Source: Ctenodactylus gundi (lineage: Eukaryota). Taken from it: a DNA stretch of 64,000 nt. The notes under the pieces were generated by a model. That model had not been told where the DNA came from. It saw only the letters and a list, made by a program, of their open reading frames with translations, and ran no database searches. Positions within the stretch are counted from its first letter, which is position 1; the number at the start of each line of letters is the position of its first letter. The DNA lies in contig CM109711.1 of NCBI GenBank assembly GCA_048771875.1, forward strand, positions 4,239,768 through 4,303,767, written 5' to 3'. The position numbers and the translations under genes are program-made. This document shows positions 4,164-33,048 of this stretch, piece after piece.

Positions 4164-4218
4164 ATGCTGACCATCGCCCTCCTCGGCCTTCTCTGCGCCT
4201 CGGCCTCTGCCAGTGCCA
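4164..4218 (+). CDS. ZG16: ZG16 copy A coding exon 1: signal peptide MLTIALLGLLCASASASA, phase-1 GT donor at 4219
   Basis: ATG at 4164 follows the acceptor ttcccactgcag|cc. The translation matches the N-terminus of human and mouse ZG16 (MLTVALLALLCASASG...). Donor is gtaagt. Confidence 0.85.
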
Positions 4219-4373
4219 GTAAGTGAGAAGTCCTGAGCCCGGCGGGGGTCGTGGGAGGGCAGTCCCTGTGCTGCTGTGGCCCAAGCTGTCAGACAGTCTT
4301 CGGATAGAGGGAACTGAGGTGCGGATGGTGGGGGTTTTGGTGGGGCCCTCACAGGGTTTCTCCTTCCCTCCAG

Positions 4374-4506
4374 TTGAGGCCAGGACCTCCTCCTACAACG
4401 GAGAGTATGGAGGTGGTGGAGGATCGAGGTTCTCCCATTCTGGGAACCAGCTGGAAGGCCCCATCACTGCCATCCGTGTGCGAGTCAACAGTTACTACAT
4501 CGTAGG
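4374..4506 (+). CDS. ZG16: ZG16 copy A coding exon 2 (..IEARTSSYNGEYGGGGGSRFSHSGNQLEGPITAIRVRVNSYYIVG)
   Basis: Acceptor ccctccag|tt. Reading frame is continuous with exon 1. Matches human ZG16 residues about 19-62 (SRFSHSGNQL.GPITA.RVRVN.YYIVG). Donor gtaaga at 4507. Confidence 0.88.
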
Positions 4507-4586
4507 GTAAGAGTCCTTTGAGTTTCTGTGGTCTGGGGACACCTGCTGTGGATAGCCCTGATTCACTTTTGACCACATCTGTTTTT

Positions 4587-4758
4587 TTCCCCTATTTTAT
4601 TGATATGTACAAGTGCAGAATTTAAGGTTTACAATGGAGTTGAGCATTTTGTGCACATATGTATCTTGTCAAGGTGACAAGGACTTTCCCGCTCTCCTTT
4701 TGTCCCTCCCTTACCCTCCCTTCCCTCCCTCCATCCCCACTGTCCCCCTCTTTCGCTT
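4587..4758 (-). mobile_element. L1 3'-UTR fragment inserted in ZG16-A intron 2, specific to copy A
   Basis: Flanked by the target-site duplication tgaccacatctgttt at 4572-4586 and 4759-4773. Absent from the orthologous site in copy B (31095-31120). The same L1 3'-end family is seen at 21120-21360, 21940-22110 and 47870-48130. Confidence 0.75.
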
Positions 4759-6310
4759 TGACCACATCTGTTTCAATCAACAAGTCACAGGTGTAATGTG
4801 ACATGGAGAGAAGTTGTTAAAAGGCCAGTATTCAAATTTGTGCTGTTACTGTTCTCGAAAATCCCCAAGGAAACAGCCCCTCTGATTGGGCCTGAAAATG
4901 TTAACCTCAGGGAAATCAGCCTGGGAAGCAGTCCTGTGCAGCACCCATGCCCCCCTTTAACTAAGTCTGTAATAGTTGAACTGTGAAGCTGTGTAGCTAT
5001 TTGTGCAGCTCAAGGTCAAGAATACAGCCTATTGCCAGGACAGGCAAGGAGAGAGGGCCAAAGACAGTGTGTACTGAAGTTTGCTTTGTGTGAAGAGAAA
5101 CTGTTTCAGCAAACTTGTTCTGCAGGCATTTCTATTTGTTACTGTGTTCTATGCTCGTTGGCTAGCAAGTCGACACCCTGTGCAAAGTGTATAGAAGTAT
5201 CCTGCCCCTGAGCTAGAGAGACCCAAGCCTTTTTGGAATTATTCATGCGAAGGTACCCTAGCAAGGTTAATAAATCTTCCTCTCACTTCTGACCTCCAGG
5301 CTCTGAGTCTTGTTACTGCTGGGTTTATCAAATTTCTGTAACATTCCTGGAGGATGGTGTAGTCTTTGCGGGAGCAGTTTTCCAGTTCTGTGACTAAAGC
5401 TTTCCTGAATACAGTAGGGAAGTTTTTGAGGCCCGAGGGGAAGCTGGTCCAGGTTAGCTGTCCTTTTTGTCACTGTGTCTTTTTACTCAAATGCAATCAG
5501 ATGCTGGCTGACCTCTGCCAGACCCAATCAGGAGAAAGCACCTTTCAGATCTAGGCAGGTGAGCATGCAGGAGGGTGCACAGGTTAAGAACAACTGGATG
5601 CATGGCTTCCACTGTCTTTGACCATACGCAGGTCTTGCGCAGGTCCACAGTCATTAGTACGCGGTGCCTTGACTAGGTGCGGTTGGTGCACTAGCTGTGT
5701 TTCAGGCTAGTCCGTCCCCTCATTTTCTCTGGCCTCTGAGGACACAGGATGCTGTCTGTGGTCCACTGGGTTAGTTGTCCCCTTTTGCCAGTCTTACCCT
5801 TCTATCGTGGTCCCAGATTTTAGGGAATCTCTGGAGCACTTGCACTAGGAACAGCTGAGGCACCAGCCATGTGTCAGCCGCAAGGAGGGGTCCATCCTAT
5901 TTCCTGTGGATGGAGCGTCTTTAAAGTTAATACAAGCAGGGCATTTGGGCCAGGGCCCCAAGTGTCTCGTCACTGTGGTGCCCAATTTAGATAACAAGTT
6001 TCTCCCTAAGAGCGAGCCTGGTGCCTCTGGAATTCAGAGGAACCAGTGCCAGACCTGCTATCTTTCTTAGCAGGTGTCATGGCCCCAAAGTGAGGTGGAG
6101 GCTGTCAGTAGTCATGGGGACTGGTCCCACTAGCAGGGGCTGTGAGGGACCTTTTGAGGCCAGGCACCAGCAGTTACTCAAAGGACCACAGAGAAACTCT
6201 CCAGGAGACTAAAGTGGAGAACACGAACCAGTATGCGCTGTCCTCGCATTTCCTTGGGTCTCCTGTGATAGGCTGCGCATTTGCAGCTTGAGGCAAAGGC
6301 AGTTCCAGCC

Positions 6311-7199
6311 TCACAGCTGGCTCCTGGCTGGGCAGCACCAGTTGGGACAGGAGCAAGAGACAGGGAACCATCCCACAGTGGGCACAGTGCCAGTGCCTGC
6401 TGGGCTGTGTGAGCTAGGGCAGGAATGTGAGGTGGGGAGACAGAAGCCATCTGCTCTTTGTTTTTGGACAGTGGGGCCTCTCACTCTGATCTCCAATTCC
6501 AACAAAAACTCGAAGAAAGTGATCTTTTGGGGGAGAGGAGAAGAGTGTGGGAGTATCTCACAGAGGACAGAAAGAAATGGGGGCCATGTCTGGGTGGGTG
6601 GATAATTGACCTGAAGCTGGGCACCTTCCCCACCTCTCGGGTGCAGGCTTTGTGGTTTGAGATGACAGGGAAGGGTATGGACGTGCTCTAAGTTGAACCT
6701 CTGGCTCTGGATCTGGGGAGGTGGCTGAGCAGGGCGCAGGGCCTTGCTCATCTGGTGGGGCATGAGGAATTGCTGCCACTGGCTGCATCGACCTTGGGAT
6801 GGCCAGCAGGGCACACAACAGGGGCTCATCTTCTGGCTCCTGGGCCAGGAAGGTGGGAGGTGGCTTTTGAGGCTTTTGGTGTGTTGTGAGCACTGCCATG
6901 GACCCTAAGGACGCAGGAAACCGCAGCTGGTCAGGTCGGCAAGCAGCCAAAGCATACCAAGAGCCAATGTAAGGAAAGTGAACTGGGTCTCCCTTGCAGC
7001 TCTCCCTTATACGAGCAACCATGGCCAAGTCCAACATTCCTTCAGGTGGCCATTCTGCTTCCAGTGTGGGCCACTCTCCTTCACAAAGGACCTGGTGGCT
7101 CTCTGGCTTCATCCGCACACCATAGTTTGCAGAGTAACCAGCTTTGAAGTGGCTCAGCACAGCCTGTAGTATGTCAGCTTCCCTCTCTCCTACAGCCAA
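6311..7199 (-). mobile_element. Endogenous gammaretrovirus-like gag fragment (MA/p15-like domain), antisense in ZG16-A intron 2, with a frameshift
   Basis: The minus-strand ORF 7199..6558 reads ..CEGEWPTLEAEWPPEGML...DPVHFPYIGSWYALAA...KPQKPPPTFL. From memory, this matches the MLV Gag MA motifs [32 protein letters not shown] and PKPPPPLPP. A second ORF (6829..6311) continues in another frame. The two are joined into a single ORF in copy B. Confidence 0.6.
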
Positions 7200-8689
7200 A
7201 GGAACCCATTTTATGTATGCCTACCATGTGGCCAGTGTCACAAGAAGAGGACAGGTGACCCCTGATGGAGACCACCCGGGCACCTGTCTGGCTGTGCCCC
7301 GCAGGAGCTTAGGTGTGGCTTCTGCATAGGGGGTTTCCTGGAGATGTTCAGCTCGACAGTGACTAATGACCAGACACTAGTCCATTCCCAGCCTAGGCCA
7401 TGTGCCAATCACCATGAAGTTGCAGAACCAGGCCCAATAAGTGCTCATAGCCTGAAGGGGACCTTAAGGATGTGAAGTTGTGAGACCACAACATCAACCA
7501 GACTCACTTAGCAGAACAGTTGCTCATTCACTCACCAGTCCCACAAGAGGTTATCACAAAAATCTCTATTTAAATTCCTCTAAATTAATGCTGCTGTTTA
7601 ACCCAATCTGGTAACCTATAACCTATAACCTGTTAGCTAGACCTGCAATTTCCTGATGACTGGAATCCTCCAGTCCCTCGTGTCCCAAGTTTCCGGTCAT
7701 CGTCTGCCATGGAAGGAGGGGAGTGGATACTTACAATCTCTTTCGAGGGCACTCTAATTGTTTTCTGTGGGGATCAATCTGCAAGGGCTCCTCACTACCC
7801 ACCCCAGGGACAACCTACCTAGTGTGGACATCCACTGTAAGTCTCTGTCTCACTCTGCCAGCCTGTAGTGTCGGTCATTAGCTGTGCAACTGTTTTCATG
7901 TGTCAAGAAAGGGACCCCAGAATTCCATCAGAGGTGCACATTTCCTGGTTCCAGGGACTGCAGTACGCTACAGGGTCAGGAATAGTAACCCTGACCCAAA
8001 TGGGTCCAGCCAGTCTTATTACTGGTGTATCACTGGGGCTTCCAGGAATGTTACAGACATCCAATACCACCAGGAAATATCAAATGAACAGAGGTTAGAT
8101 GAAGATTTATTACGCTAGTATGCCTTTTTCTAGATCATTCCAAAAATGGAGGGCCAGAACTCCAGGGCAGGCTACTTTCACACACTTTGTGGGATCAAGG
8201 GGGAGCCTTGCTGTCCAGCAAGCTGGGGACACGGAGATATCAGCCTGGCAAGTTTGCACAAACAGTTTCGTCTTTACACAAAGCCAGCTGCAGACAGCAC
8301 CCTTCGTCCTTGGCCCTGCAGCACACTCTCTCACTGCCGGCCTAGGGGGCAGGCTCTGTGCTTGTGCTGGAGCTACACTGCCAGGCACACCGCTTGACAC
8401 TTTAACTGTTACAGACTCAGCAGAGGGGCGGAGGGTGAGTGCTTTCTCTTAGGTTGTTTCAGGCCCAGTCAAGAGGGGCTGCTTTCCTGGGAATCTACCA
8501 CGATGTTACAATTCCTGTGCTCCAACACGTGTGACTTGGCAAGTCACGTAGCAAGGAACTTTTAGGGACCGGAAATCTGTGTGTGTCAGCCTCCACCCAA
8601 AGTTTAAAACTCCTTTGTAATATTCCTGTCAGATACCTTTCATGTCTGGTTCCTGTCTCTCTCTCTCTGTCTTCCTTTTGGAGACCAGG

Positions 8690-8865
8690 TATTGCTCTGT
8701 AGCCCAGGCTGGCTTCAAACTCACAACAGTTCTCTGCCTTACCTCCTAAGTGCTGGTATTACTGGCATGCAACTCCACGCCCAGCTTACGTGGTGCTTGG
8801 GAATTGAACCAGGACCTCATGCTTTTTATGCAAGTGCCTTAACCACTGTGCGCCAGCTCTTAGTG
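8690..8865 (-). mobile_element. tRNA-derived SINE (ID/B1-like), antisense
   Basis: RC of the SINE head: ..ttaaccactgtgcgccagctc. Paralogous copy at 35460-35640. Confidence 0.55.
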
Positions 8866-9527
8866 TCGCTATGTATCCTTGCTCATTTCATATAGTTAAA
8901 AATTCTACAATATGAAGAGGCAAAGTGTTTCCTCTGATACGCATTTTGTATCCTGAGACATCACTGCCAAGTCTCTTCTCTTTCCCACATGAGAAACTTG
9001 CAGGTAGTTTGAAAATAGTTTAGCATCAGGCTTGGTAGCACAGGCCTGTAATTCCAGCCCTCTGAGAGGGTTCCAAGTTTAAGACCAGCCTGGACATTTT
9101 AGTAGCTTAGTAAGGCCCTATCTCAAAATAAAAACTAAAAATGGGCAAGGGGCATAGCTTAGTATGAATGTCCTGGACTCAATCCCACTAATTAGTTAAC
9201 TTAAGAAACCAAAACAAAGGAAAAAAACACCCTTCTTGGTTCTTTGAAGTGAGGAATAGGAGCACAGAAGATCTTGGACTCCAAATTCAAGCTCTGACCT
9301 TGGCTTTCCAGGGGACTCTGAGCAATTCCTTTTCCTTTCCTTCTAGGAGGCTATTTGTGGGCAATATGAGGAGTTGATGTTCCCTGGGGGATCGTCTAGG
9401 GCTCACCCAGCTTTCGTATTCCGTGGGACCAGCAGGGGACCTGTCATCTCTGTCCCCATTTTGAGGCCTGGAGGTTCTGGATTCTAACCCTATTGTGTCT
9501 CCCTCCTCCCTCTTCAACCACCCCCAG

Positions 9528-9843
9528 GCTCCAGGTGCGCTATGGAAAGGAGTGGAGTGACTATGTGGGTGGCAAACAGGGTGACCTGGAGGAGATCTAC
9601 CTGCACCCTGGGGAGTCAGTGATCCAGGTGTCCGGCAAGTACAAGAGCTATGTGAAGCAGCTGGTCTTTGTTACGGACAAGGGCCGCTACCTGCCTTTTG
9701 GGAAAGACACCGGCACCAGCTTCAATGCTGCTCCATTGCATCCCGACACTGTCCTCCGATTCATCAGTGGCCGATCTAGTTCCGCCATCAATGCCATTGG
9801 CTTTCACTGGGATAATTACCCCAGTGAGTACAGCAGCTGCTGA
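9528..9843 (+). CDS. ZG16: ZG16 copy A coding exon 3: jacalin-type lectin domain (LQVRYGKEWSDYVGG...HWDNYPSEYSSC*), stop TGA 9841-9843
   Basis: Acceptor cccccag|g. Long near-match to human ZG16 (LQVRYG..WSDYVGG..GDLEEI.LHPGESVIQVSGKYK...VFVTDKGRYL.FGK..GTSFNA.PLHP.TVLRFISGRS). Total CDS is 504 nt, giving 167 aa, the same length as human ZG16. Confidence 0.9.
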
Positions 9844-9921
9844 GACCTGCCTCCTCTATGGCAGGGAGAACATGATTAGCATAAAAACTCCACCATTAGC
9901 TCCTCCCACACAGATGGCTTA

Positions 9922-9927
9922 ATAAAA
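9922..9927 (+). terminator. ZG16: ZG16 copy A polyadenylation signal AATAAA
   Basis: AATAAA lies about 80 nt after the stop codon. Confidence 0.5.
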
Positions 9928-11999
9928 GGGCTTGGCTAAAGCTGGTGTGTATATGGTGTCTTCAGCTGGGATGTGCCTTGTTCTGGCAGGAATGTGCAAA
10001 CCTCATTTCTGGCTCTCTGTTGGCGTAAATCTGAGAGAAGTGGGGGGATAAGGAAGAGAAGTGTTGAGACTCCTGGGCCTCTCCTTATAGTTTATCAAAA
10101 GTATGGCCAAGCATCGTCATGCATGCCTGAATTTGAAGTAATCATGTGTTAATTTGACATTCCCTGACAGATGCAAAAGTTGCTTCTTCTCTTCTAGTCA
10201 CATGATTTTACTGGTGCTGCGAGAACAGGGTTTTCCACACGGGGCCCACGGGGTGTGACAGAGGGGCACCTAACTACATCTGGGAGTGTCAGGGAAGGCT
10301 GTGAGGGGAGCGGTGTGTATGTGTGGATGCAGGTAACAAGCACAAGGCCCCGCTTAAGCAGACACAGGGGTAGACCACCACAGAGCACACGCTTAGTTTA
10401 GCATGTTATAAAGCCCTGCATCTGATCCTTATTAAAAAGGAAAACAAGGAAGAGTGATTAAATACACCTAAAATGCAAAGTACAAAGAGGCCAGGAATGA
10501 AGTCCACCAGGTGTGATGGTACATGGCTCGAACCACAGCAACTCAGGAGGCGGAGGCGGGAGGATTTCAAGTTTTGAAACCAGCCTGGGCAATTTAATGG
10601 ATCCTGTCTCAAAACAAATATTAAGGACTGGAGGAGTGGCTCGGTGGTCAAAGCATTTACTGAGAGGCACAAATTCTTGTGGTCAATTCCCTAAGACTAT
10701 ATAAGCCACATGTGGTGGCACAGGTCTGTGATCCCAGCCAGGAGGCTTGCCTGCACTCAAAGGCTAGATTATCCCACATACTTCAAGACCTTCCTGGGAT
10801 ACAGAGCAAGATCCTGTCAAAAAATAAATAAATAATAAAATAAAATAAACAAAGTTTACAGCAGATTGTAGCCCATGGTAGAGAATTTAGTTAACACGTG
10901 CAGGCCTTTACTTCATTCTCCTTATCCCCAAAACATGCACAAGACTGCAGCCCCCTGAAAAGGCTGAGGTAATGAATGTCATGCTAAACAACTTAAACTT
11001 ACTTTATGGGCTATGGGAAGAACCAAATCAAATTTTACCCTGAAGACTGATGAGACAATATGGAAGCATCATTTTCCTGTTGCTGAGTGGGGAAAGTAGA
11101 TAAGTTCCAACAGGAAGAAGCAAGGAAGTAGCTGGGATATTTGAAGTGTAGACTAGAAATGCTGACTATCTGCACCCAGAAGTGCCAGGGAGTGAGAAGA
11201 GGGACAGTATGGGGCAGTAGCAGAGGACAGATGGTGAGGAACCTGAGGGTGAGTGAAGGAGTGATGGCTAGGAGCACTAACTTGTCTGTAGCTTGGGCAA
11301 CTAGAAACAGAAGGGTATCATGTTCAGAGGTGGGGAATCAGAAGCAAAAATTAGTTCGTAGACTTGCTGAGTGTTGATGTATCTGTGAACATCTTAGTTG
11401 AAGTTGAAATCCTACCAGTGGTGTATCTGAGAATACAGCTTTTATAAAAATGTATCTTTTTTGACAAATACTAATTGTATATATTACGGAGTAGAATGTA
11501 ATGACTGGTATATGTTTACAATGTGGAATACTTAAATAACCCAGCACCTCACATAATTACTTGTGACAAAGACAGTTAACATCCATTCATCTAACAATTC
11601 TTTTCTTTTTGAAAGTCACATTGTGTAGCCCACATTGTTTCTGAAGTCACGAAGTAGCCCATGCTAACCTCAAATTCATGCCAACCCTCCTGCATCAGCC
11701 TCTGGAGTGTCTTTTGGCATTCTGGAAGTACACGATGCATTACTAATGACAGTCACCATTCTGTCAGTAGTTCATGAAGGCTTAGTCCTCCTGTCCAACT
11801 GAACCTGCATATTGTGATCAACATCTTCCTTCGCCTGCCTCAGGTAACCACCATTTCTCTGAATTCCACCTTTTTAGAATCTACATATAAGTGAGATCAT
11901 GCACTATTTGTCTTTCTGTGCCTGGCTTATTTCATTTAAGGAAATATGTTCCCGGTGCATCCATGTTGTTGCAAGTGACAGGCTGTGGAATAAAGCTCT

Positions 12000-13520
12000 G
12001 ATGAAGGTTTGATGTGGAGTTTAGATTTAGAAGATATTGACATAGTTCCAGTGATGGATGTGGAAGGGACTCAGGAACATTACAGGTATATAAAATGAGA
12101 AGGGGACTTCCGGGCAAGATGGCGGCCAAGGAGGAGTACTGCTCTATGGCTCCCTGCAGGCTCACTCAAAACGGTGAGATAAAGCTAAAAACTACATGGC
12201 TTCACTAAGCCAGGAGTGGGAACACAACTCTAAGAATTGAAAGGAGGCCAGGGGAATGCGGGAAACCCCGGAAACATGTCAGAAGCTGAAGAAAACACAA
12301 GTCCACGAAGCCACCCCAGGCCTCCTGGGAAAGGCCATGAACCACAGGCAAGCATGGGAACCACGGGAACCGACAGCAGCGGGTAGCCCCAGTCTCTAAA
12401 CACGAGCCTCGGTAGTGTAAACTGCAAATGCACTAGGAGCTTCCCCTTCCACATCTTACCAGAACAGCTCAGGAAAAGCAGTGCTCAGTAGCCATATGAG
12501 GCAGTGACATACACAGGAGCCAGTGGGAAAAAGCCTGGGTCTGAACTGTTTTAGCATAAAAGAAGCCACAGATGGGCCACATATACAGGATTTGGGGTAC
12601 ACTCTTAATCAGTGCCTGCAAAGGAACTGGCCCAAAAGACAGCTGCAGAGCGGGGAGAAAGGCCGCTGACCAGAAGAGAGGGGAGAAAGTCTATGGACCT
12701 GCTGAATGGTTTGGGTGGTAGCAAGGGTACCTCTGAGGGCAGAGAGCCACGCCCTCAGGGAAGGAACCCAGGATAGACAGGAGAGGTTTGCTGAGGGGCT
12801 GGGTGTGGACATGATACCTTAGAGTCCATGGGACTGTTAGGTCCTCTCCTCACTGCATACTCTGAACAAGAAACCAGAGTGCACTTTCGGCCCCGCTGGC
12901 ACACCCTGTACACCTTCTAAAAACACCTGTCAAGTAGGCTATTAAAGTTCCTCAGCAATAGAATCACAGGAAGACAAGGCACTGGGACGCATGCAGAAAC
13001 ACCTTGTAGGTCCTGACACAGGAACTCATAGGAAAAACAGTCAAAAACCAAGTAGGCCAGGTGGTTTATGTGAACAGTCAGTTCAAACAAGATATTCTTA
13101 AAGAAATACAAGTAATGATCAGTGGGCTTAAAGAGGAATTTACTACACAGTCAATGGTCCTAATGAATACAAAAATTTCTGAGCATATGTAAGACACCAA
13201 TAAAAACCTGGCTAAGGTAAATAAGATAATGCAGGATATGAAGGAACATTTTGATAGCAAAGTAGAAAATCTGAAACAATCTAGCTGATGCTCAGGAAAT
13301 AAAAAATTCATTTGAAAACAGAGGAAGTCAGCTGAAATGTTTCAAGGGCAGAATTTCACACTCTGAAGACAAGACTGATGAGACTAATGCTATAGCCAGT
13401 CATGACACGGAAGTAAGAAATGAGCCAAGCAGCAGCACGCACAGCTCTGGGATGACTCAAGGACAGCCAACCCAGGACCATGGGTGTGGGAGAAAGAGCA
13501 GAAGGCGGCACAAAAGGAGT
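12000..13520 (+). mobile_element. L1 5' region and ORF1 fragment
   Basis: Coiled-coil ORF1-like translations. The region is A-rich. Present only in copy A's inter-block region. Confidence 0.55.
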
Positions 13521-15099
13521 GAACTATATATATAATGAAATCATGGTAGAATATTTCACTAACCTAGAAAAGTAAATTATTATTCAGGTACAAGAAGGTT
13601 CTAGAATACCACACAACTATAAGCAGAAAAGAAACTCGTCACAACACATCATAATCAAATCCTCAGAAATTCAAAACAAAGAGAGAATATTAAGTGCACT
13701 AAGAGAAAAAAAAGCCTTTTTTTTTTGAGACAGGGTCTTACTCTATAGCCCAGATGGGTTCTGAACTCACTATGGTGTCCAGACTGGCCTTAGACTCACT
13801 GCAATCCTCCTGCCTCAGCGTCTCAAGTGCTGGGATTACAGGCATGCGCCACCACATCCAGATGATGTGGTGCTAGGGAATTGAAGTTAAGTACTTATAC
13901 TTGACTCAGTGGTTTCTAGGCAAGAGCATAAACCATTGAGCCATTCCTCCAGCTTGGGACAGACATTATTTTATTAAGGAAAAGCCATCAAAATTACTGG
14001 GAATTTCTCAACGTAAATACTGAAGGGGAGTAGAGCCTTGAATGAATTCTTTCAGGCTTTAAAGGAAACCAAGTGTTAACCTGGGTTGCACCCAGCAAAA
14101 TTATTCCTGTAAAACTGAAAAAGCAAAAAGTTATTACAACCTAGAAACTCTACATAGATTTGCAACCACTAGCCCCGTATTGCAGAAAATGCCAGAAGCA
14201 ATCTCAGACAGAGACAGAGAGAAGAGCAGCACCAAAGAACACACAAGAAAGGAAACATCAGAAGGGAAAGTGTAACAAAAAGAAAAAAACAAAAAGAATC
14301 AACACTAGAAGAACAGGGCAATGACAAGGTGTAGCAAAAATCTTCCAAAAATTACTTTCAGTGCTAATGGACTTAACTTATGAATCAAAAGACACAGACT
14401 GGAGGAGTGGATCAAAAAGCAAAACCCAACCATTTGTTGTTGGCTAGACACCCCCTTCACACAGAAAAAAGCACACAGACTGAAATTCAAAGATGGAAAC
14501 TAACACTACATGTTATGGGAGCCTGAAATGAACCAGAGTAGATATGGTAATCTCAGACACGGAAGACACTGCAGATGGACACTATATAGTGGTAAAAGGA
14601 ACAACCCAACAGGAAGAGCTCACAATTGTAAACATACATGCACTTATGCACTCAATGTATGTGTATGCAATTACATAAAATAGAAACTTCTGGACACAAA
14701 AGGCCAAACAGATCCCAATACAATCATATCTGAAGACTCTGATACTGCACTCTCACAAACAGAAAGGAGAACCCAACAACAACAACAAAAAAAATCAAGG
14801 AACATCAGAGCTAGGTCACTCCATGGATAAAATGGACTTAACAGATATCTACAGAGTGTTTTATCCAGATAGCTAGTGTGTACTATTCAACATCAACAGA
14901 ACATGCCTTTATCTCAGCAGCACATGGAACTTTTTCCAAAACAGACTGTAACACTGGACATAAGACATACTTAATACAAAAGAATTGAAATCATTCCCTG
15001 CATATATTAATATCAGAAGTGAATGAAACTAGAAATCAACAACAAAAGAAACTATAGAAAGTATACAAGTACATGGACGTTAAATAATACATTATTGCG

Positions 15100-15300
15100 C
15101 AGGAGAAATGGCACAGTGGTTAAAGTGCAAAGTCATGAGTTTGATTCCCCAGCACCATATAAAGCCTAGGACTTGACGGTGCATGGCTGTAAGCCCAGCA
15201 CTCAGAGGCTAAGGCAGGATTGCCATGAATCCAAGGTTAGCGTGAGCTACACAGTGAGTTCAGGGCCAGCCAGGGGTACAGCGAGACTCTGTCTCAATAA
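15100..15300 (+). mobile_element. ID/B1-type SINE
   Basis: ggagaaatggcacagtggttaaagtgc...gattccccagcacc...cccagcactcagaggctaaggcaggattgcc, with an (AAATA)n tail. Confidence 0.6.
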
Positions 15301-15714
15301 ATGAGTAAATAAATGAATAAATAAATATAAAAAACATTGAGAAAGCAATGGATCACAGAGGAAACCAAGAAAGAAATTAAAAGCTTCCTAACTCAAATGA
15401 CAATGGAAATATGTTGTAAGTATATCACACATGTTATATATGTTATACGTATTTGTTATAAGTACTAAGAGGGAAATTTATAGCTATGAATGCACACATA
15501 AAAAAAACCCTGAGGAATCTAAAATTAACAATCTAATGATGTAGCTCAGAGTCCTAGAGAAGGAAGAACAAGCCAAAACCAAAAGCAGTAGAGGGAAGGA
15601 AATTACAAGAATCAGAATGGAGATCAATAAAATTGTAACTAAAAATAAAATACAAAAAGATCAATGAATAAAAGACTTTGTTGTTCAGAAGAATAAATAA
15701 AATTGGTAAGCCTG

Positions 15715-15965
15715 GGGCTGGAGGAATGGCTCAGCGGTTAAAGTGCTTAGTCAGCAAGCGCTGCTAAGTCAAGTGCTAAGTACCTGAGTTCGATTCCCCT
15801 GCACCACATAAGCTGGGCATGGTGGTGCACACCTATAATCCCAGCACTCGGGAGGCTGAGGCAGGAGGATTGTCGTGAGTCCAAGGCCAGCTTGGGCTCC
15901 ATAGTGAGTTCAGGACCAGCCTGGACTACACAGCGAGACCCTGTCTCAAAAATAAAATAAAATAA
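15715..15965 (+). mobile_element. ID/B1-type SINE
   Basis: ggctggaggaatggctcagcggttaaagtgcttag..cgattcccctgcaccac..cccagcactcgggaggctgaggcaggaggattg, with an (AAAAT)n tail. Confidence 0.6.
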
Positions 15966-16399
15966 AATTGATAAACCTGTAGCCAAACTCACCAAAAGAA
16001 GGGAAGAAAATATCCACATCTATGCAATTAGAAATTTAAAAAGTGGGGCTGGAGGAGCTGCTCAGTGGTTAGAGTGCTTGCATAGGAAGCTCAGGGCTCT
16101 GGGTTTGATTCCCTGGTACTGCATAACCAAGGTGTGGTGGCACTTGTCTGTAGTTCAGGGCCTGAGGCAGGAGGATAGCCATGTGTTTGAGGCCAGCTGG
16201 GGTTACATGGGAGCTCAAAACTAGCCTGGACTAATGAATGAGACCTTAAGCTGGAGCATGGTGGCACAAGTCAGCAGCCCAGCATGTGGAAGGCTAAGGC
16301 GGAAGGATTGGTGGAAGTTCAAGGCTAACTTGACCTACATAGTGAGTTCAGGACCAGTACAGACAGAACAGTAGGAGCCTGTATGAAAAAATATAATTT

Positions 16400-17460
16400 A
16401 ATAAACACAGACAAAAGTAAAAACTGAGCTGAGGTTGTAGCTCAGTGTGAAGACCAGATATTGGATCTTCATGACTATGGGGGAAAAAAATGAAAAAAGT
16501 GAAATCACAACAGACACTACTGAAATCCATAGGATTACCCAACAGTATTTTGAAAACCTATATTCCAAAAATTCAAGATATGAATAAATTCCTAGATGTT
16601 TATAATATACCAAAATTGAACCAAGAATATATAAAAACTCTGAATACAGCAAGAGCCAGGAATAAAATTCAGACAATAATAAAGGGTCTACCAACAACGA
16701 AAAGGCCAGGACCTGAAGATTCATGGCAGACTTTATCAGATGGTAAAGGAGGAGTTAGAGCCACTGCCCCTTAAGTTCTTCCATTAAACTGCTAGAGAGG
16801 GAACACTGCTAAATTCCTTCCTAGAAGTAAGTATCACCTTGATCCCCAAACAAGATAAACAGCCAACCTGGAACAAACATGAAAAACCAATTTCCTTTAT
16901 GAATATTGATACAAAAAGATCTTAATAAGATCTTTGCAAACAAAATGGCAACAAATTATTAAACAGATAATACAGAATGGTCAACTTGGCTTCATCCTGG
17001 GGTTGAAAGGATGGTTCAACACATGTAGCTTGTAACTAACTCAATTAATGTAATACACCATATAAACAAAAACAAGGACAAAAATCACATGATGATCTCA
17101 ACAGATGCAGAAAAAGCCTTTGGCAAAATCCAATATCCCTTCCTAATCAGAACTCTGATGAAAATAAGTACCGAAGGATATTACCTCAAGCTGATAAAAG
17201 CAATCTATGAGAATCCAACTCTGAACCTTATTCTATGTGGGAAATACTGAAAGCATTTCTCCTAAAATCAGGAATACGACAATGGTGTCCCCTCTCACCA
17301 ATCCTTTTGAACGTAATGCTCTAAGCCACAACAGATCAGGCTCAAAAAGGAGTCATCCATGCTAAAAGTTCTACACAGCCAAGCCGAAACTGCTCTTCCT
17401 AGCATAAAGAGGTAACAACCAAATTCGCCAGAGGCCAGATTCACTTGGCATGATAACAAA
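16400..17460 (+). mobile_element. L1 ORF2 (5' part) fragment
   Basis: ORF 16490..16774 and neighbouring frames resemble the start of L1 ORF2 (..NQEYIKTLNTA...KGLPTKKSPGPD-like). Confidence 0.6.
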
Positions 17461-17699
17461 GGTAACCTCAAGTAACTCGATGCTGTCCTCCTACTCCCTC
17501 TCCCTGTAACACCTCCCGAGGTGAGAAGATCACTTTGGAGAAGGCCGATCCCCTCCTGTCTCCAACCTGCCTGTGTTATAACACCAACGCCTTCTGCTCA
17601 GCCTCCCGGGGCATTCACTCTAAGCTACGGCCTGAAGTGTTGCCCGACGCTAGAACAGCGTCAGCCACTCAAGACCTTTACACTGTACTTCTGTCCTTT

Positions 17700-18637
17700 G
17701 GCAGGTAGAACGTAATGTCCAACCGGGGCCCGACCCGGAGCTCCGAAGGACCGACCATCCTCACCGGAGGGACACGCGTGGACTTCGCAGCTGAACCCTC
17801 AAGGGATCGGCGCGAGCGTGACCAGGCAACCCGTAAGGCAGGACTGCAACGCTCGCTCCGAACAGCTGGCTGCCAAGTTACGAAGCGAGGTTGGCGGCGC
17901 TGGCGTCCTCGGCGCGGACACGAGACACGCGGGGCCACACGGCGGCTCTGGCTCGGTGAGACGTGCGCGACGCGTGACGGCACAGTGACTGCGCCCAGCC
18001 GGGGCGGGCGGCTCCGGTCCACGGAACCGACCCGACGTGGCAGCACGGCTGCTGCGTGACCACCTCGGCCTCAGGCGCAAAAAACTTCTGAAAAGATCAG
18101 CAGCCGTTCAGAGCAATCCGCTTCCTGATACTTTCAGCATTAAAGAGGCGAAAAGCGTACTCAGCGCTGGGAAGTTTTTGGATCCAGCGACCAAGCGGCT
18201 CCGACCACTGTCTCCTTGCTTCGTACCAAGATCGGAGCTGCAGGGGTCGCGGCGACTCTGCACGCACGGAAATGTACGCGCGGGAACCCCAGAGTCTGGA
18301 CACGAAAGGAGCCCGGCGGGCACGGACGTTTCCCGCAACACAACGCCTCGAGCTTCCGGTGTCCGCCGGTGCCTAAGCTCGACCTCAGCGGCTCCGCGGC
18401 CAACGCCCTTGCGCCTGCGTCCTCGGCCGGGGGAAGCTTTAACGTGACGGACGGGATGTGAGCTTTAGAACGCGGGCTGGGGAAGAGCTACGATCAGGGG
18501 CTTCCGGCGATGCAGAGTCGTGATTGGTGAATCCTGGGAGGGGGGCGGGGCGCCGGGCAATTCGAATTAGAGAGGCGGGTCCGAAGCCGTGAGAGGAATG
18601 GACGCTGGGGCTTCGGTCCCGTCGTTCCCGACGGGAG
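17700..18637 (+). promoter_or_regulatory. Orphan duplicate of the KIF22 CpG-island promoter (copy A)
   Basis: Essentially identical to 40126-41062, with identical ORF-track translations across about 1 kb. Carries CCAAT (ATTGG at 18523-18527), a GC box (18541-18550) and a CHR-like TTCGAA (18561-18566) upstream of the duplicated ATG. Confidence 0.7.
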
Positions 18638-18656
18638 ATGGCTGCGGCCACCTCAG
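18638..18656 (+). pseudogene. Orphan duplicate of KIF22 coding exon 1 (ATGGCTGCGGCCACCTCAG|gtacgt) with no downstream KIF22 exons
   Basis: Identical to the genuine exon 1 at 41063-41081, including the GT donor. Downstream homology ends at about 18850, where L1 and SINE sequence begins. Confidence 0.65.
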
Positions 18657-18815
18657 GTACGTGGGTCGTGCGAGGGTGAGGCGCGCACCAAAATCTGAAG
18701 CGGATTGAGTTGACAGTACAGTCAGGGAAATAAAGGACTGTTTCCTCAAAGCCCTTGCTGTGGAACTGAATGCGATTTAGTCAGAAAGACGGTTAACACC
18801 TTCAAAATCCTGTAT

Positions 18816-19020
18816 GTGCATATTTGCTTACGTCTACCTCTTGTTGCTGTTGGTATCTTATATGACCCAGCTACAGCTCTTCTGCGAATCTTCCCAAAAG
18901 AGTTAAAGTCGTCATACAGTAGTAATACATGCAAACCCATGTGTATAGCAGCACAATTTATAACAGCCAAATCTTGGGAGAATCCAATGTGCTCCAGAAC
19001 AGACACCTGTATAAAAAAGA
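18816..19020 (+). mobile_element. L1 ORF2 C-terminal fragment at the distal edge of block II, copy A
   Basis: Translation ..IFPKELKSSY..CKPMCIAAQFITAKSWENPMCS.TDTCIKKMW resembles the L1 ORF2 C-terminus. Confidence 0.6.
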
Positions 19021-24500: not shown

Positions 24501-27500
24501 CTTCCTATCCCAGACCTATCAGATGTTCTAGGCCAATGTGGGCTTTCCTCTTCTGCAGCTGCCTGCGGCTACCAGCTGTTTGCAGCCGACCTGTAGCAGC
24601 TTCCTGGCATGTGGGGGTTTTCGCTTCGATTTCGATGTTCCTTGAGGATTTCTGACCTTCGCCTGGCCTCCTTTCAGTTGTTGGAGTGCTTCTCTCTGTC
24701 CTGGCTAGATTGAACACACATTTTATGACTAAATTTTTGACTTTTTAAGTAGTTTGTTGAAGAGACATTGTGCCACTCTGTTACTTGGCTGCCTTCTTGA
24801 CCTGGAAGTCTGCCCCCTCCTTTTTAAGACTGAGCCCAGAGCCCTAACACTGAGCTCCATTCCCCAGCTTACTTGATATTTGTTTTGAGAGAGGGTCTCA
24901 CCAATTTGCTAAATTGCCCAACCTGGGGTTGAGCTTAAAATCCTCCTGCTTTGGCCTCACCAGAGAGCTAGGATTACAGGTGTGCGCCACCATCACCAGC
25001 TCCCCATATTCTCTTTGGGGGACCTCCTAAGATCTGTTACAGTGACAAAAAGACCAACGTAATTTTTTCCTCAGTTTCTGCTCGCCATTTAGCATCTGTG
25101 TGAGACAGTTTCCTCTGCTTATCTCACTGGACCACTAACTCTGCCTAATGGAATTTAGTACTGTCTGATTCTAAAATTGTATCTAAAAGCCAGTTGAGAT
25201 ATTTAAATGAAAGCTGGATGTGGTGGAGCAGTCCTGTCATTTCAGCACTTGAAAGGCTGAGGCAGGAGGATTGCTGTGAGTCCAAGACCAGTCTGGGCTC
25301 CATAGTGAGTTCAGGACCAGCCTGGAGTACAGAGCGAGGCCCTGTCTCAAAAAAAAAAAAAAAAGATTAAATGATATTTTTGGTAATCTTGTCTTTTGAC
25401 AGGGTGGAAAAAGAAATCTCCACCATGGGGTTTCCGTTTGCATGGACTCTGGGAAGAGCTTTGCCTACCCAACAGTGAGAGTTGCTGTCAGGGCCACTGA
25501 AGAGAAAAAAAAGAGAAGAATCCAGGAATGGAAGAGACTTCACACATCTCCTGCCGTGACTGCCCATTTTGACTCATACTGTTGCCCAAATCCATTCTCT
25601 ACTTTATCCAAAAGCAGAGAGTAAACTTTGTAAAATGTAAATGCAATCCTGGACCGTCCTCCTCATCTTTGACCCACTTAAAACCTTCTAGGACTTCCCT
25701 CAAGAATAACAACTAAAATCTTGACCTGGCCTTCCAGACCAGGCGCCATCTGCCCACTCCATTGCCCCTGCCCAAACCTCACCTCGCATTGACTTCCCTT
25801 ACGTACCACCAGCCACCCTGCCCACCTTGCTGTTTGAAAAGTCATCAAACATACTTTCTCCTCAGGGGATTTCGTGTTTGTTGTTCTCTGTGCCTGTACT
25901 CAGATGTCTGTATTTCTCTCCATTAATTCAGGTCTGTAAATCCAAGCACCCTGGGAGGCTGAGGCAAGAGGATCACAACTTTGAATCTGTGCTGGGCAAT
26001 TACAATTCAGTTAGAGTCTGTCTCAAAAAAAGAAAAGAAAAAGAAAGAAAGAAAGAGAGAAAGAAAGACAGACAGACTGACCATCAGGGATGCAGCATTC
26101 AGTATGAAGGCTCTGGGCTCAATCCCCAATGCCACAGGAAAAAAAAAATACTAGCTAAGTGGAGAAGTCTCCCAGTAAGGAGAGCAGCTTCCCACCTCCC
26201 CGCGGGCTCTCCTGCTTCACTGTTCACGGCACAACCCTCCAGCTTCGTGGTATGTGGCGTGTGATCTCACATGACAACTGTGCTGACTCTGCCCAGAGTC
26301 TGAGCTTCCTGAGGTGGGCAGCGGGCTTCCCACTCACTTCACGTCCTGGGCCTCTGGAATGGGGCTCAGTGTAGAGATTGACACGTGAGGAGTGAATCTC
26401 TACCCAGGGGCAGAGGAGGCAGCAAGAGGTCAGCTGCCAGTTGCCCTGCAGTAGCGGAAAACGTGGGAAGGGCTTTGGTTCTTCATCTGCCGTGGGACGG
26501 GGGATGGGGAGAGGTGTGAACTGCCTTCACCTTCCTTCTGGACGCTCAGTTACCTCATCTGAGGAGAGGTACTGCAATTTCTCCCACTGGAGGAACAACT
26601 CTTACACTTAAGAAATGACACTGAGGACTTCCTGTAGAGCAGGGTCCCCACCACCCCTTCCCCCCACTCTTGACAGAGATCTGCTTCCTCCGCTTCCTCT
26701 CTCTGTGTTCCTGTAATGTTCTGACAGGAGGCAGAGCTTCATCCCCTCCTGCTGCTGCTGCTCCCCCTTTCAAAGCTCTCCTCCAACCTGCTGTGTAAGG
26801 AGTGTCCCCCTAACCCTGACCTTGGCAAAATGGTTTTCAACTAACGCGGTCCTTGTGGCAAGGCTGGGGACCACTGCTGTAGTGCACACCGGAGCAGTTT
26901 CCAGGCAGTGGAGGAGACTGGACTCCACCTAGGCGGGTTGGGAGCAACAGAGTGAATCTGGGGTGCCTCTTGTTGATGGTCCCCATTGTGTCATGCCTGG
27001 ATACCTCAGGCTTCTCCATGCTGCCACGTGGACTTGCTGGCTTGATCACAGACTGGGATGTGGACGTGACAAGGAAGAGGAGGGACGGAGGATTCGAGAG
27101 AGAGGAAAGAGCTAGAAGGAGCACAGGGGAAAGATGCAGAGGGAGAAGGGGAAAGACGTGGGAAGAAGAGACCGAAACACCAGAGCAAGACATTAAGAGT
27201 TCAGGAAAAGCAACAATCAGAAGGTAAGCAACATGCAAAACAAAACCATGCTGTCTGTGGTGGTGCGCATCTGTAATCCCAGCACTGGGAAGGCAGAGAC
27301 AAGAGGACTGCTGTGAGGTCAAGGCCAGCCTGGGCTACACAGTGAGCTCAGGACCAGCCTGGAGTATACAGCAAGACCTAGTCTCAAAAGAAAAAATAAT
27401 TGGATTGGACTTAGGTAAGGGTTAAATTACCTGTTCAGTGCCTATCGAACTTGAGAAAAAATGGAACCAAGGAAGAAGAAACGAGGACATCATTGGCTGT

Positions 27501-29744
27501 GGACTGGCGTCACCTGGGGACCTTGCACCCAAGAGCTGCACCCTATTTCCAGTTCACCAGGGAAGGACTTCCTCCTTATCTGAGATGAATCCTCAGCACC
27601 AGATGGCGAGCCTGCAGGGGCACGGGTGGAGCACTGCCTGCCCCGCACTGTACTGCCCTCATTAAGGCCTGATAACTGCTCATTCCAGCCGCTCCCTGGG
27701 TTCCATCCTTCTCTCCCCAGGGAGGGCCCTGCTAAGAAGGAACAGAGAGCCTTCCCCTGAGGGGGCCAACACTAGGACTCTGGGCCAGTTTTAAGGTTGA
27801 AAGGAATTAGTCCTGGTAGAGGAGCCTTAAAGAGCAGAGTCTGTGACTTCCCTCTGGGTTTTAGCCTGAAGGCACGAACAAGTGTCCCGAGTGGATTACA
27901 ACCATGAAGCCCAAAGTCGCAAGTGAGAGGAATCATGTGTATTTACCATTGTCTCTTTAAAGGCCTCTTTGCAGCTAGAACAGAAGCTGCTGTTCTAACC
28001 ATTTGAAAGAATAATCTTCCTTTCCTTAAAACTTCAGCTGGAGAGTATCTCAGTGGTTACAGCACTTGACTTGCCTAGGAAGTATAAAGTTGTGGGTCCA
28101 GTTCCCCAATGCCACATAATAGCTGGGTACCTGTGACCCCAGCACTTGAGAGGGTGAGGCACGCGGACTGCCTTGAGATCAAGACCAGCTTGGACTACAG
28201 AGAGCCCCGTGGCCCAGGTGTGTAAACCAGTCCCTGAGAGGCTGAGGCAAGAGAATCACAAGATTGAGCCTCACCTGGACAACTTAGTGATGCAGTGAGA
28301 TCCTGTGTCTAAGTCAAAAAAGAAAGTGGGTCAGAGATAAGGCTGTGTGTCAGGACCGGGGGTTGGACCAACAGTCTCAACTTCCCTCACATATTCCTTT
28401 TGAAGCCCCTTGCCCACCAGCCCTAATTAACTGTTCTGTGTTCCTCAATCGGTTCACTGGAGGGATTGTTCCTGGCAGTGCCCAGGGCATTGCAGTCTGG
28501 CCAGCGGAGGCATAATGTCAGGCTTTGCACAACGCCTGACCATCCCTTGCTGAGAGATGAACAGCAGGACACGGTGACTGGTGGAGTGATTCCAGGATGG
28601 CCTAACCCAGAACTCTCCTCGCGCTGAGGTCACGTGTGAGACTCTCTGCGCTCTCCCTGTGGCACGGTTCCTTCTAGGCCTGGCCCACCGCTCCCGTGCC
28701 GTGTACCAATAAACCACCAACTCTTTCCTTGGCTGGTGATACATTCTTTCACCAGCCCACCATTCCTCTACAGGCCATGCCAGTCATAGCAGTTCTCAAA
28801 TTTCAGGTTGATCCCCAGAAGTGGACCTGTGTCCCTCACTTTCTAGCTTCCCACTTCGCTAATGGACTGTGTCTGGGAAGGGATATCTGAGGTTCACGTC
28901 CCCCTGCAGCCCCAAGTCGCCCTTCTCCGAGAGGAAAGGTTTGAAGGACTTGGCAGACAGAACAGATAGACGTTGCTATGACCATGCACCTCTGTAATCC
29001 CAGCACTTGTGAGGCTGAGACAGGAAGACTTTCATGAGTTAGAGGCCATGCTCAGCTATGCAGTTAGCTCAAGTCTAGTGGGGCCTCCTGAGCAAGATCC
29101 TATCTCAAGTTAAAAAAAAAAACAAGAAGAAAAAGAATAAAAATGCATGGTTGGAAGCAAGCACAGTGAGATACTGATTGGGGTAGACACTAGGAATTTT
29201 CACCGCACAATCAAACTTGACTAAATGTTTGGAATTTTCAGAATAAAGGCAAGGGAAAGAAAAAAAGCAAGGAAATAGTAGGCAATCTCAGTACAGGGTC
29301 TTGGGAGTGTGTGCCCTTGACAGAATCTGCATTTCAGAAGATGGGAGAGGGCCATATTTATCTAGGTATATGGCACATTTCAGGTGAGAGCCCCTACAGG
29401 GGTTTCAACTGAGGGGTTGCCCGCTGCAGCCCTCTTAGGCTGTACCCTAGATCTGTTTGTTTTTTTTGTTTTTTTTGTTTTTTTTTTTTTTGTATGCTAG
29501 ATCTGAGTAGCTACGTTTGTCCCTCAAAAGTTCTGGCCCTTTTGTTGCCGGTAACTTAAGTTTATCCTGCCCCTCATGTGATTTGGCAGTTGGCCACAGT
29601 GGGCCCCACCTTGCCAGCTGTGACCCTTGTCAGAGGGGCAGGATAAGATGTTCCAGACCCTGCCCCACACCTGACCCTAAGAGGCTGATCGTGTTTGCTC
29701 AGAAGGTGAGGTTCATGCGATAAGGGCCAGGGGGGAGGTCTTCG

Positions 29745-29801
29745 ACCTGGTATAAATATCTGGAAGTACCTGGGGGCTTATTTTGCATCTGAAAGTGCCA
29801 G
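29745..29801 (+). promoter_or_regulatory. Putative ZG16 copy B core promoter with TATA box and a short non-coding first exon
   Basis: TATAAATA at 29751-29758 and donor g|gtaagg at 29802. This is the paralogous counterpart of 3195-3252. Confidence 0.4.
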
Positions 29802-30702
29802 GTAAGGTGTGACAAGGATGTCCTGATCAGAGTTAGGGGCTACCAGGTGTGAGGTGGAGAAGAAGATTCCTAGATTGAGTGGCAGGAGAGCTTCAGGGAC
29901 AGGGAGGCGGGGCCCCTGGAGCTGAGCATTTAGATGCCAAGATGTCTGGTTTCATGGGGGCATGAGGGGCTCTCCAGAATTAAATGGCTAGGTATGGGTG
30001 AAATGGTTATGACCAAAAAAACAAAAAACAACAGGCATCTGGAATCCAGTGTCGGATTGTCCCAACTCCTTCTGCAACTTTTCAGGCTAGCCAAGCTCAC
30101 GTGGTGCTAGGGAATAGAACTCACGGCTGAGTGCTTGCAAGCACTCTAACCATCATGCCATTCATCCTCTATCTCAGGCCTGAACTGTTGTGACACTGAC
30201 ATCAGCACAGCCTCTTCTGTCACTACCTTCCTTCCTAAGGCGACCCAGAGGCACCGCTACAATGCTCCCTTTCTGGTTTGAGACCAGGCGGAAGCTGGGA
30301 ATTTAATGGTGCCCTGGGTGCCCACTAGTGAGGCTAGTCTACTGGCTGCCTTTGTTAGGTGTTCCTCAGGTCCCCTTGCCAGGGTAGGATGGGGTTTGAC
30401 TCAGCCTCACCCGGATCCAGTTGGGATCGGCCATCTGGTTTGGGGGGGGGGGGGGAAGAGGAGGGTTGTTAACTGCAGCCATACCAGGGACAGCCATAGG
30501 GAGCGGGGCCATCAAAGACGGTGTCCCGAAGGGACAGATCCCAGATGGAGTCTTCTCTGAGCTCAGGACTGGGTGGGCTCGGTGTGAGGTGAAGAACAGA
30601 AAGAGCCCGAGTCTAGACTGGGGGACCGGATGGCCGATACATGACCTCCAGAGGGAGGAGGACGAGCTGTCGTTTCTCCTTTGTTCCCACTGCAGCCCCA
30701 GC

Positions 30703-30757
30703 ATGCTGACCATCGCCCTCCTCGGCCTTCTCTGCGCCTCGGCCTCTGCCAGTGCCA
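30703..30757 (+). CDS. ZG16 paralog (copy B) coding exon 1, signal peptide identical to copy A
   Basis: ATG at 30703. Translation MLTIALLGLLCASASASA. Donor gtaagt at 30758. Confidence 0.85.
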
Positions 30758-30909
30758 GTAAGTGAGAAGTCCTGAGCCCGGCGGGGGTCGTGGGAGGGCA
30801 GTCCCTGTGCTGCTGTGGCCCAAGCTGTCAGACATTCGGATGGAGGGAACTGAGGTGCGGATGGTGGGGGTTTTGGTGGGGTCCTCACAGGGTTTCTCCT
30901 TCCCTCCAG

Positions 30910-31042
30910 TTCAGGCCAGGTCCTCTTCCTTCAACGGAGAGTATGGAGGTGGTGGAGGATCGAGATTCTCCCATTCTGGGAACCAGCTGGAAGGCCCCAT
31001 CACTGCCATCCGTGTCCGAGTCAACAGTTACTACATCGTAGG
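30910..31042 (+). CDS. ZG16 paralog (copy B) coding exon 2 (..IQARSSSFNGEYGGGGGSRFSHSGNQLEGPITAIRVRVNSYYIVG)
   Basis: Acceptor ag at 30908-30909 and donor gt at 31043. Reading frame is intact. There are a few amino-acid differences from copy A (EARTSSY versus QARSSSF). Confidence 0.85.
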
Positions 31043-32888: not shown

Positions 32889-33048
32889 TGGCTCTTTGTT
32901 TAGAACCAGTGGGTCCTATCACTCTAATCTCCAGTTCCAACAAAAACTCTATATAAAGTGATCATTTAGGGGGGCAGAAGGAATCTGGAAAATTTTCACA
33001 GAAGACACTAAAGAATCTGGTTTGGGTCTGGATTGGTGAATAATTGGC

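Follow-up and report, generated by a model that had tools for sequence, protein, structure and literature searches.

Results

A near-exact copy of the KIF22 promoter inside a diverged tandem duplication

We analysed a window of 64,000 nucleotides from the gundi Ctenodactylus gundi, a rodent of North Africa (assembly GCA_048771875.1, contig CM109711.1, positions 4,239,768 to 4,303,767 of the forward strand; coordinates below are those of the window), in which an orphan copy of the CpG-island promoter and first exon of KIF22 lies upstream of the complete gene. The two promoter copies sit in the two units of an old tandem duplication with a background identity of ~78%, and they share an exact run of 1078 bp. 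We consider it very likely, judging from the pattern of identity along the two units, that this reflects repeated non-crossover interlocus gene conversion. On this reading the tract over the KIF22 promoter belongs to a whole series of conversion tracts, in which it is the youngest and cleanest, and is no special case. The window as a whole is the gundi orthologue of the ZG16-KIF22-MAZ-PRRT2 block, whose human counterpart is a segment of 16p11.2.

A first-pass annotation of this sequence had reported that the CpG-island promoter and exon 1 of KIF22 recur between the two ZG16 genes, and self-BLAST and MAFFT alignment both bore out this repeat. The copies belong to a tandem segmental duplication of at least 19 kb, consisting of an upstream unit with the orphan (copy A) and a downstream unit with the true promoter (copy B). 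Self-BLAST of the window returned seven collinear blocks (14-4584 to 18718-18846, paired with 26472-41633); as position 14 is the window edge, the unit exceeds its visible part. Global alignment of the two copies gave 83.6% identity over 14,125 shared columns.

Pairwise alignment of 16400-18900 with 38800-41700 (MAFFT) mapped the edges of the tract: a perfect part (17430-18507), high identity up to 18701, and an end of all homology at ~18850. Over 17430-18701 the copies were 99.6% identical, and the perfect part contained no difference at all. The adjoining stretch (18508-18701 versus 40934-41126) was 97.4% identical, with substitutions at 18508, 18552, 18590 and 18619 and a 1-bp insertion at 18617. 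Thus, all five differences of the 1272-bp tract lie within its last 194 bp, for which the probability under a uniform spread is ~8e-5. This clustering implies at least two events, or events that overlapped only partially. The letter-identical translations of open reading frames in the two copies are a consequence of the DNA being identical. Three GC-rich open reading frames (114-136 aa) within the perfect tract gave no match in Pfam, and Rfam, at its gathering thresholds, gave no match anywhere in the window; on these empty results we rejected the idea that the perfect tract conceals a gene or an RNA.

The alignment also changed the outline of the homology. It had been placed as starting at 17230; instead, it runs further left through a shared L1 ORF2 fragment to 16488, within the duplication. 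This fragment was recognized by Pfam as RVT_1 (E=1.8e-10 on a stitched translation) and has an observed/expected (o/e) CpG ratio of 0.20. Nor is the orphan a full reproduction, since 377 bp of the real gene (41127-41503) are missing at its 18701/18702 junction. All features are collected in Table 1.

Table 1. Positions of the features of the duplicated KIF22 promoter and its surroundings (window coordinates).
Feature	Position	Counterpart	Strand	Remarks
Duplication unit, copy A	14..18850		+	ZG16-A, intergenic L1/SINE, orphan KIF22 5' end; left end cut by window start
Duplication unit, copy B	26472..41640		+	ZG16-B, true KIF22 promoter, exon 1, first ~560 bp of intron 1
Perfect-identity tract	17430..18507	39856-40933	+	1078 bp, 0 differences; upstream part of KIF22 CpG island
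Partner tract, real KIF22 CpG-island promoter and exon 1	39856..41126		+	ATG1 41024, ATG2 41063, last exon base 41081
Orphan KIF22 core promoter, exon 1 and first 45 nt of intron 1	18508..18701	40934-41126	+
L1 ORF2 (reverse-transcriptase) fragment	16488..17429	38901-39855	+	~75-88% identical; diverged 5' flank
KIF22 intron 1 remnant in orphan	18702..18850	41504-41633	+	18718-18846 ~83% identical to counterpart; homology ends ~18850
L1 ORF2 C-terminal fragment, then SINE	~18851-19025, 19026-19261		+	At or next to duplication junction
High-identity tracts, 94-99%	114-591, 1074-1398, 1474-2324, 3506-3817, 3893-4545			Identity profile
High-identity tracts, 94-99%, continued	5428-6147, 6625-7881 (98.9%), 9286-9836			Identity profile
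High-identity tract over KIF22 promoter	17423-18698			99.5%; identity profile
CCAAT box, reverse	18520-18529	40946-40955		Both copies
GC box	18542-18550	40968-40976		Both copies
CHR-like TTCGAA	18561-18566	40987-40992		Both copies; ~30 nt upstream of ATG1
ATG1	18598	41024		Both copies
ATG2	18638	41063		Both copies
Splice donor	after 18656	after 41081		Both copies
ZG16-A coding region	4164..9843		+	Exons 4164-4218, 4374-4506, 9528-9843; ATG-exon acceptor 4157
ZG16-B coding region	30703..36613		+	Exons 30703-30757, 30910-31042, 36310-36613; ATG-exon acceptor 30696
KIF22 exons 2 to last	45864..55917		+	Single set, downstream of copy B; tblastn

The promoter tract is one of a graded series

To judge how exceptional the exact run is, we compared it with a null that scattered the differences randomly among the columns of confident homology. 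In 2000 permutations the longest exact run had a median of 37 bp and a maximum of 70 bp, versus the 1078 bp observed. The promoter tract is also not alone: against the background, eleven further tracts (≥95%) were found, with identities graded from 94 to 98.9%. The longest of the older tracts (6625-7881 versus 33063-34312; 1257 bp, 98.9%) lies inside the second ZG16 intron. Contrary to the earlier description of the ZG16 block as 75-95% identical, this block is uneven and holds tracts of up to 98.9% with exact runs of up to 280 bp. The GC content of the tracts was 0.53-0.62, versus 0.46 for the background. Recent gene conversion, one of the two explanations offered by the first-pass annotation, is the best account of the exact run, its diverged flanks and these other graded tracts.

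A patch that is diverged on both sides is not the product of a simple unequal crossover. Exchange between units of a ZG16 array had to be considered, since there are at least three ZG16 paralogues on the chromosome and such an array could expand and contract. Unequal crossing-over would, however, have made one whole side of the exchange point identical as far as the end of the unit, whereas the 1.1-1.3-kb patch returns to 75-88% identity on both sides: ~75-88% on the 5' side, and ~83% on the 3' side after the 377-bp deletion. Because of these diverged flanks we rejected it, and we regard it as most improbable that crossing-over rather than non-crossover conversion produced the patch.

Identity does not follow evolutionary constraint

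Next, we compared the locus with that of three outgroup rodents, the kangaroo rat (Dipodomys merriami), the naked mole-rat (Heterocephalus glaber) and the guinea pig (Cavia porcellus), using stretches of 10 kb on either side of ZG16. BLAST against the three outgroup loci gave no counterpart for the tracts 114-591, 1474-2324, 5428-6147 and 6625-7881, nor for most of 17430-18507. Only 1-24% of the perfect tract had an outgroup BLAST counterpart, at ~74% identity, while ~76-99% had none; within it, the sole naked mole-rat match (17627-17758) was weak. The core promoter and exon 1 (~18495-18701), on the other hand, were conserved in all three outgroups (72-74%). The opposite pattern was seen for the block 2673-3290 (versus ~29200-29830) upstream of ZG16, which is conserved across rodent suborders (68-77% identity in the three outgroups) but in the gundi shows an identity of only 78-86% between copies A and B. 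This block may contain regulatory or 5'-exon sequence of ZG16 in which the two paralogues are drifting apart. As unconserved tracts are near-identical and a conserved block has diverged, identity between the copies does not track constraint. The same holds on a smaller scale within the KIF22 tract, where the part that is unconserved across species is the perfect part and the conserved core bears the differences between copies A and B.

These data bear directly on the possibility that both promoters are functional and have been too constrained to accept any substitution since the duplication. In its favour, the core promoter motifs are invariant over four rodent lineages, and KIF22 is a listed target of the DREAM complex through cell cycle-dependent element/cell cycle genes homology region (CDE/CHR) sites, with TTCGAA among the ten accepted CHR variants (PMC4705690). 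The perfect tract lies mostly upstream of this conserved core, though, and the conserved 18508-18701 is exactly where the copies differ, by a frameshift among other changes. Moreover, other high-identity tracts fall in a ZG16 intron and in unconserved intergenic DNA, and even with a divergence of only 2% the probability of finding no difference in 1078 bp is 4e-10. The outgroup BLAST and alignments effectively refute constraint as the cause of the identity, and we assign it a close to negligible likelihood.

An assembly artefact is unlikely

The second explanation put forward in the first-pass annotation was an error of assembly. In that case the GC-rich island would have been filled, polished or consensus-called from the other copy, or haplotypes or paralogues would have been mis-threaded. 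GC-rich sequence is a classic site of coverage drop-out in short-read assemblies, and the perfect, sharply bounded identity does lie where the duplication is richest in GC (0.62-0.65). Several observations weaken this alternative. There are no gaps or Ns in the whole window. The matching proteins of the KAM series appear to trace to the GenBank annotation of the Vertebrate Genomes Project (VGP) assembly mCteGun2.hap1 (GCA_048771875.1), for which the table entry reads 'HiFi, Hifiasm Hi-C phasing', and high-fidelity (HiFi) reads of >10 kb would span the 1.3-kb repeat together with unique flanks that are 12-25% diverged. In addition, identity in the other eleven tracts is intermediate (94-98.9%), unlike the outcome of gap-filling, with the graded ages that this implies, and the 194 bp adjoining the perfect tract hold genuine copy-specific differences. 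We therefore consider an artefact unlikely.

A proposed sequence of events

The pattern could have arisen as follows. A lineage-specific tandem duplication would have occurred tens of millions of years ago, with one end of the unit upstream of ZG16 and the other ~560 bp inside KIF22 intron 1. The diverged units (~78-87% identity) would then have kept swapping short patches, giving about a dozen tracts at 95-100%. An older event probably homogenized the core promoter and exon 1, whose divergence has since reached 2.6%, and the latest event would have overwritten ~1.1 kb of the CpG island, with the diverged L1 fragment as its 5' border. At its 3' end, the high-identity tract around this patch stops where the 377-bp deletion lies.

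Approximate ages follow if neutral rates of 2.2-4.5e-9 per site per year are assumed, which are general values and not measured for the gundi. With these rates, the perfect tract is younger than ~0.3-0.6 million years (95% bound), homogenization of the core promoter is ~2-5 million years old, and the background divergence (K ~0.14-0.26) corresponds to tens of millions of years. The conversion that produced the perfect tract may therefore still be polymorphic. The functional KIF22 promoter probably served as its donor, as the reverse transfer would carry mutations of the orphan into an essential gene. Of the five neighbouring differences only two could be polarized (18552 and 18617), and both are derived in copy A.

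Several points weigh against repeated conversion between copies A and B as the full account. The direction of conversion cannot be read from the perfect tract itself, and a third ZG16 unit outside the window could also have joined in. The outgroup comparison comprises three species that predate the duplication, and the left end of the duplication unit falls outside the window. Finally, the correctness of the assembly is deduced from the sequencing technology, and the HiFi basis of this window is itself deduced from exact protein matches.

Architecture of the duplicated locus

Genes were located with KIF22 (human) and ZG16 protein probes. The resulting gene order is ZG16-A, KIF22 promoter/exon-1 stub, ZG16-B, and complete KIF22. 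In agreement with the earlier observation that the orphan copy runs into L1 and SINE (short interspersed element) sequence without further KIF22 exons, tblastn found no KIF22 exons between 18850 and 45854. The distal breakpoint of the duplication is inside KIF22 intron 1 (~18850 in copy A and ~41640 in copy B), and a promoter/exon-1 stub was thereby necessarily left between the two ZG16 genes. Within the 10 kb covered on either side of ZG16, all three outgroups have a single ZG16 directly upstream of KIF22, which places the duplication on the gundi lineage. Past 41126 and past 41640 it is copy B, and not copy A, that is collinear with the outgroups (guinea pig and naked mole-rat). Since this collinearity extends across both the deleted segment and the breakpoint, the deletion and the truncation belong to copy A.

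Beyond ~18850, copy A consists of an L1 3' fragment and a SINE, and homology to KIF22 intron 1 never resumes. The 62-aa junction peptide LYDPATALLRIFPKELKSSYSSNTCKPMCIAAQFITAKSWENPMC (18851-19025), which we take to be the C-terminal part of L1 ORF2, gave no match in Pfam, and the SINE that follows it (19026-19261) resembles ~10 other copies in the window by self-BLAST. Nonallelic homologous recombination between L1 elements was not supported as the mechanism of duplication, because no L1 is present in the real intron 1 at the site that corresponds to the junction. The junction L1 may instead have been inserted after the duplication. Between ZG16 and the shared L1 fragment, copy A is ~4.3 kb longer than copy B (10130-16487 versus 36889-38900). 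The extra sequence is AT-rich, with SINEs at 13717-13953 and 15715-15970 and L1-like pieces, which look like post-duplication insertions.

Downstream of KIF22, open frames encode peptides from which alone we presumed MAZ and PRRT2 to be present. The region 56000-64000 contains an extremely GC-rich island with up to 82% GC at 57-58 kb, followed by MAZ zinc-finger exons (for example GPYICALCAKEFKNGYNLRRHEAIHTG at ~58.1-58.3 kb) and the start of PRRT2 at ~63.4 kb.

ZG16 paralogues

Both ZG16 open reading frames in the window are intact, and their exon coordinates were checked by exact reconstruction of the two proteins. The spliced ZG16-A translation matched KAM5227605.1 exactly (100%; 'zymogen granule membrane protein 16-like [Ctenodactylus gundi]'), as did that of ZG16-B with KAM5228343.1. 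A third gundi paralogue, KAM5228212.1, comes from the same 66.86-Mb record but lies outside the window. This protein is a mosaic, with N-terminal residues resembling ZG16-B (IQARSSSF) and a C-terminus resembling ZG16-A and the outgroups (YPSHCSSC). The ZG16 array thus probably has at least three units, and a further KIF22 stub could exist beyond the window.

ZG16-B is the shorter protein, with 163 aa and the ending DNYPTC* (36598-36613), versus 167 aa for ZG16-A (DNYPSEYSSC*, 9826-9843) and for the outgroup proteins (SYPSDCSSC*). As read from its coding sequence, ZG16-B has lost the conserved, Cys-containing C-terminal tail. The second ZG16 intron spans ~5 kb in the gundi, whereas the entire ZG16 gene measures only 1.2-1.6 kb in the outgroups. 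With regard to its origin, the orphan KIF22 promoter is best explained as a by-product of ZG16 amplification.

The orphan keeps its core promoter elements but shows signs of relaxed constraint

The motifs listed in the first-pass annotation (CCAAT box, GC box, TTCGAA, ATG and splice donor) were all located in both copies. In a five-sequence alignment of the two gundi copies and the three outgroups, the reverse CCAAT, the GC-box core, both ATGs, the GT donor and GTGATTGGTG were invariant, and the sequence AATTYGAAT (TTCGAA/TTTGAA) was conserved. At the CHR position the kangaroo rat, too, has TTCGAA, and the naked mole-rat and the guinea pig share TTTGAA. The orphan region 17700-18701 qualifies as a CpG island (GC > 0.5, CpG o/e > 0.6, length > 200 bp), having a GC content of 0.65, an o/e ratio of 1.11 and 117 CpGs, with 0.65 and 1.10 for copy B; the perfect tract alone has values of 0.62 and 1.02. 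Such equal CpG metrics are to be expected so soon after conversion and are no evidence of function.

The first coding exon of KIF22 proved longer than previously described. Rather than 19 nt, its coding part is 58 nt counted from a conserved upstream ATG at 41024 (ATG1), which is in frame with ATG2 in copy B and in all three outgroups. In copy B the ATG1 frame reads MDAGASARRSRREMAAATS|GAGRC across the 41081-to-45864 splice, and is open and homologous to KIF22. Owing to the +1 insertion at 18617, ATG1 and ATG2 of the orphan are no longer in frame. Copy A also carries an AATAAA at 18729-18734, 73 nt past the donor, where copy B has GATAAA (region 41514-41519), and this could favour early polyadenylation of any orphan transcripts. 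The 12 kb of L1/SINE sequence before ZG16-B holds 24 AATAAA/ATTAAA hexamers, versus 4 in the 4.8-kb real intron 1. Together with the 377-bp deletion, the frameshift and the new AATAAA are apparent signs of relaxed constraint on the orphan outside its freshly converted patch.

Possible activity of the orphan promoter

Given that every conserved core element survives, the orphan is probably a CpG island that is unmethylated and competent for transcription. Transcription from it is plausible, and its transcripts would probably be short or non-coding by-products without a selected function, which none of the features of the orphan indicates. The proposal that it might act as a decoy for DREAM/MMB-FOXM1 factors seems of little consequence, as one additional CHR/CCAAT site would presumably be a negligible sink for abundant factors.

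Two sequence details of the suggestion that orphan transcripts could be spliced into ZG16-B were confirmed. The acceptor at 30696 is real, as is the stop that the ATG2 frame would meet after the splice (MAAATSAPAC*). The +1 insertion at 18617 has a further consequence: given an 18656-to-30696 splice, the frame of ATG1 (18598), which has a strong context, would continue into that of ZG16-B and add an N-terminal extension of 22 aa. The in-frame junction is probably a coincidence, with a chance of 1 in 3.

These features allow the view that the orphan has been exapted as an active, cell-cycle-regulated promoter for a selected chimeric or read-through ZG16-B transcript, or for a long non-coding RNA, and is maintained by conversion; this would add to gene conversion and not replace it. 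What speaks for it is that the CCAAT box, GC box, CHR, transcription start site region and consensus-like donor are all intact, that the CpG o/e ratio of 1.1 equals that of the real island, and that the genuine acceptor at the ATG exon of ZG16-B is joined in frame by the shifted ATG1 frame. Intact motifs are expected anyway shortly after conversion, however, and the 22 residues, apart from the chance nature of the frame, would precede the signal peptide. The AATAAA close behind the donor and the many hexamers before ZG16-B also argue against such transcripts, and an extension of this kind is absent from all three annotated ZG16 proteins of the gundi. We thus regard exaptation as improbable. 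Its most specific form, in which a cell-cycle-regulated orphan uses the 18656-to-30696 splice to yield an N-terminally extended, proliferation-coupled ZG16-B (MDAGASVPSFPTGDGCGHLSPS-MLTIALL) and recurrent conversion prevents decay of the promoter, would be very improbable. Nothing in the sequence points beyond the status of a by-product for the orphan.

Discussion

The gundi locus presents an old (~80% identical) tandem duplication that is still being patched by conversion, with the youngest patch on a promoter that has lost its gene. For annotation and for comparative promoter analysis this calls for caution, as 100% identity of a 'second promoter' does not in itself make it recent, functional or an artefact. 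It also has a practical side: short reads from chromatin immunoprecipitation (ChIP), transposase-accessible chromatin (ATAC), cap analysis of gene expression (CAGE) or bisulfite experiments will map to multiple positions and be ambiguous over 17430-18507 and 39856-40933. Should the orphan be active, it would offer a natural experiment on an isolated DREAM/CHR promoter without its gene. Biologically, the lineage-specific expansion of ZG16, a gut mucus lectin, to three gundi copies may be the more interesting event.

Interlocus conversion and concerted evolution are well documented in tandem gene families and in the segmental duplications of the human genome. As there, the gundi locus shows near-perfect patches of hundreds of bp to ~1.3 kb in older, diverged paralogues; multiple tracts of differing age that are GC-richer than the background; and tract ends at heterologies such as indels and diverged L1 sequence. 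It differs in two respects. The background divergence (~13-22% raw) is high for ongoing conversion, and the youngest tract covers a promoter without a gene body, with no obvious function to preserve. We conclude that this is a new instance of a well-known phenomenon and a clean, ordinary case of the homogenization of duplicated DNA. A comparable case in the literature is nonallelic conversion between the promoters of duplicates (PMC10100218).

The truncation of the copied gene has a parallel in HYDIN2, described as a human-specific neural gene born by incomplete duplication and gene fusion (PMC5345166). In both cases a breakpoint inside a gene leaves a truncated paralogue beside foreign sequence, with the potential for fusion transcripts. 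HYDIN2 is reported to have lost its promoter and 5' exons and gained a new promoter, whereas the gundi orphan keeps nothing but promoter and exon 1. With respect to the promoter itself, both gundi copies resemble the CHR/CCAAT promoters of G2/M genes that are controlled by DREAM and MMB-FOXM1 in having an NF-Y-type CCAAT box, a GC box and TTCGAA in their sequence. The orphan departs from these promoters in that it drives no kinesin open reading frame.

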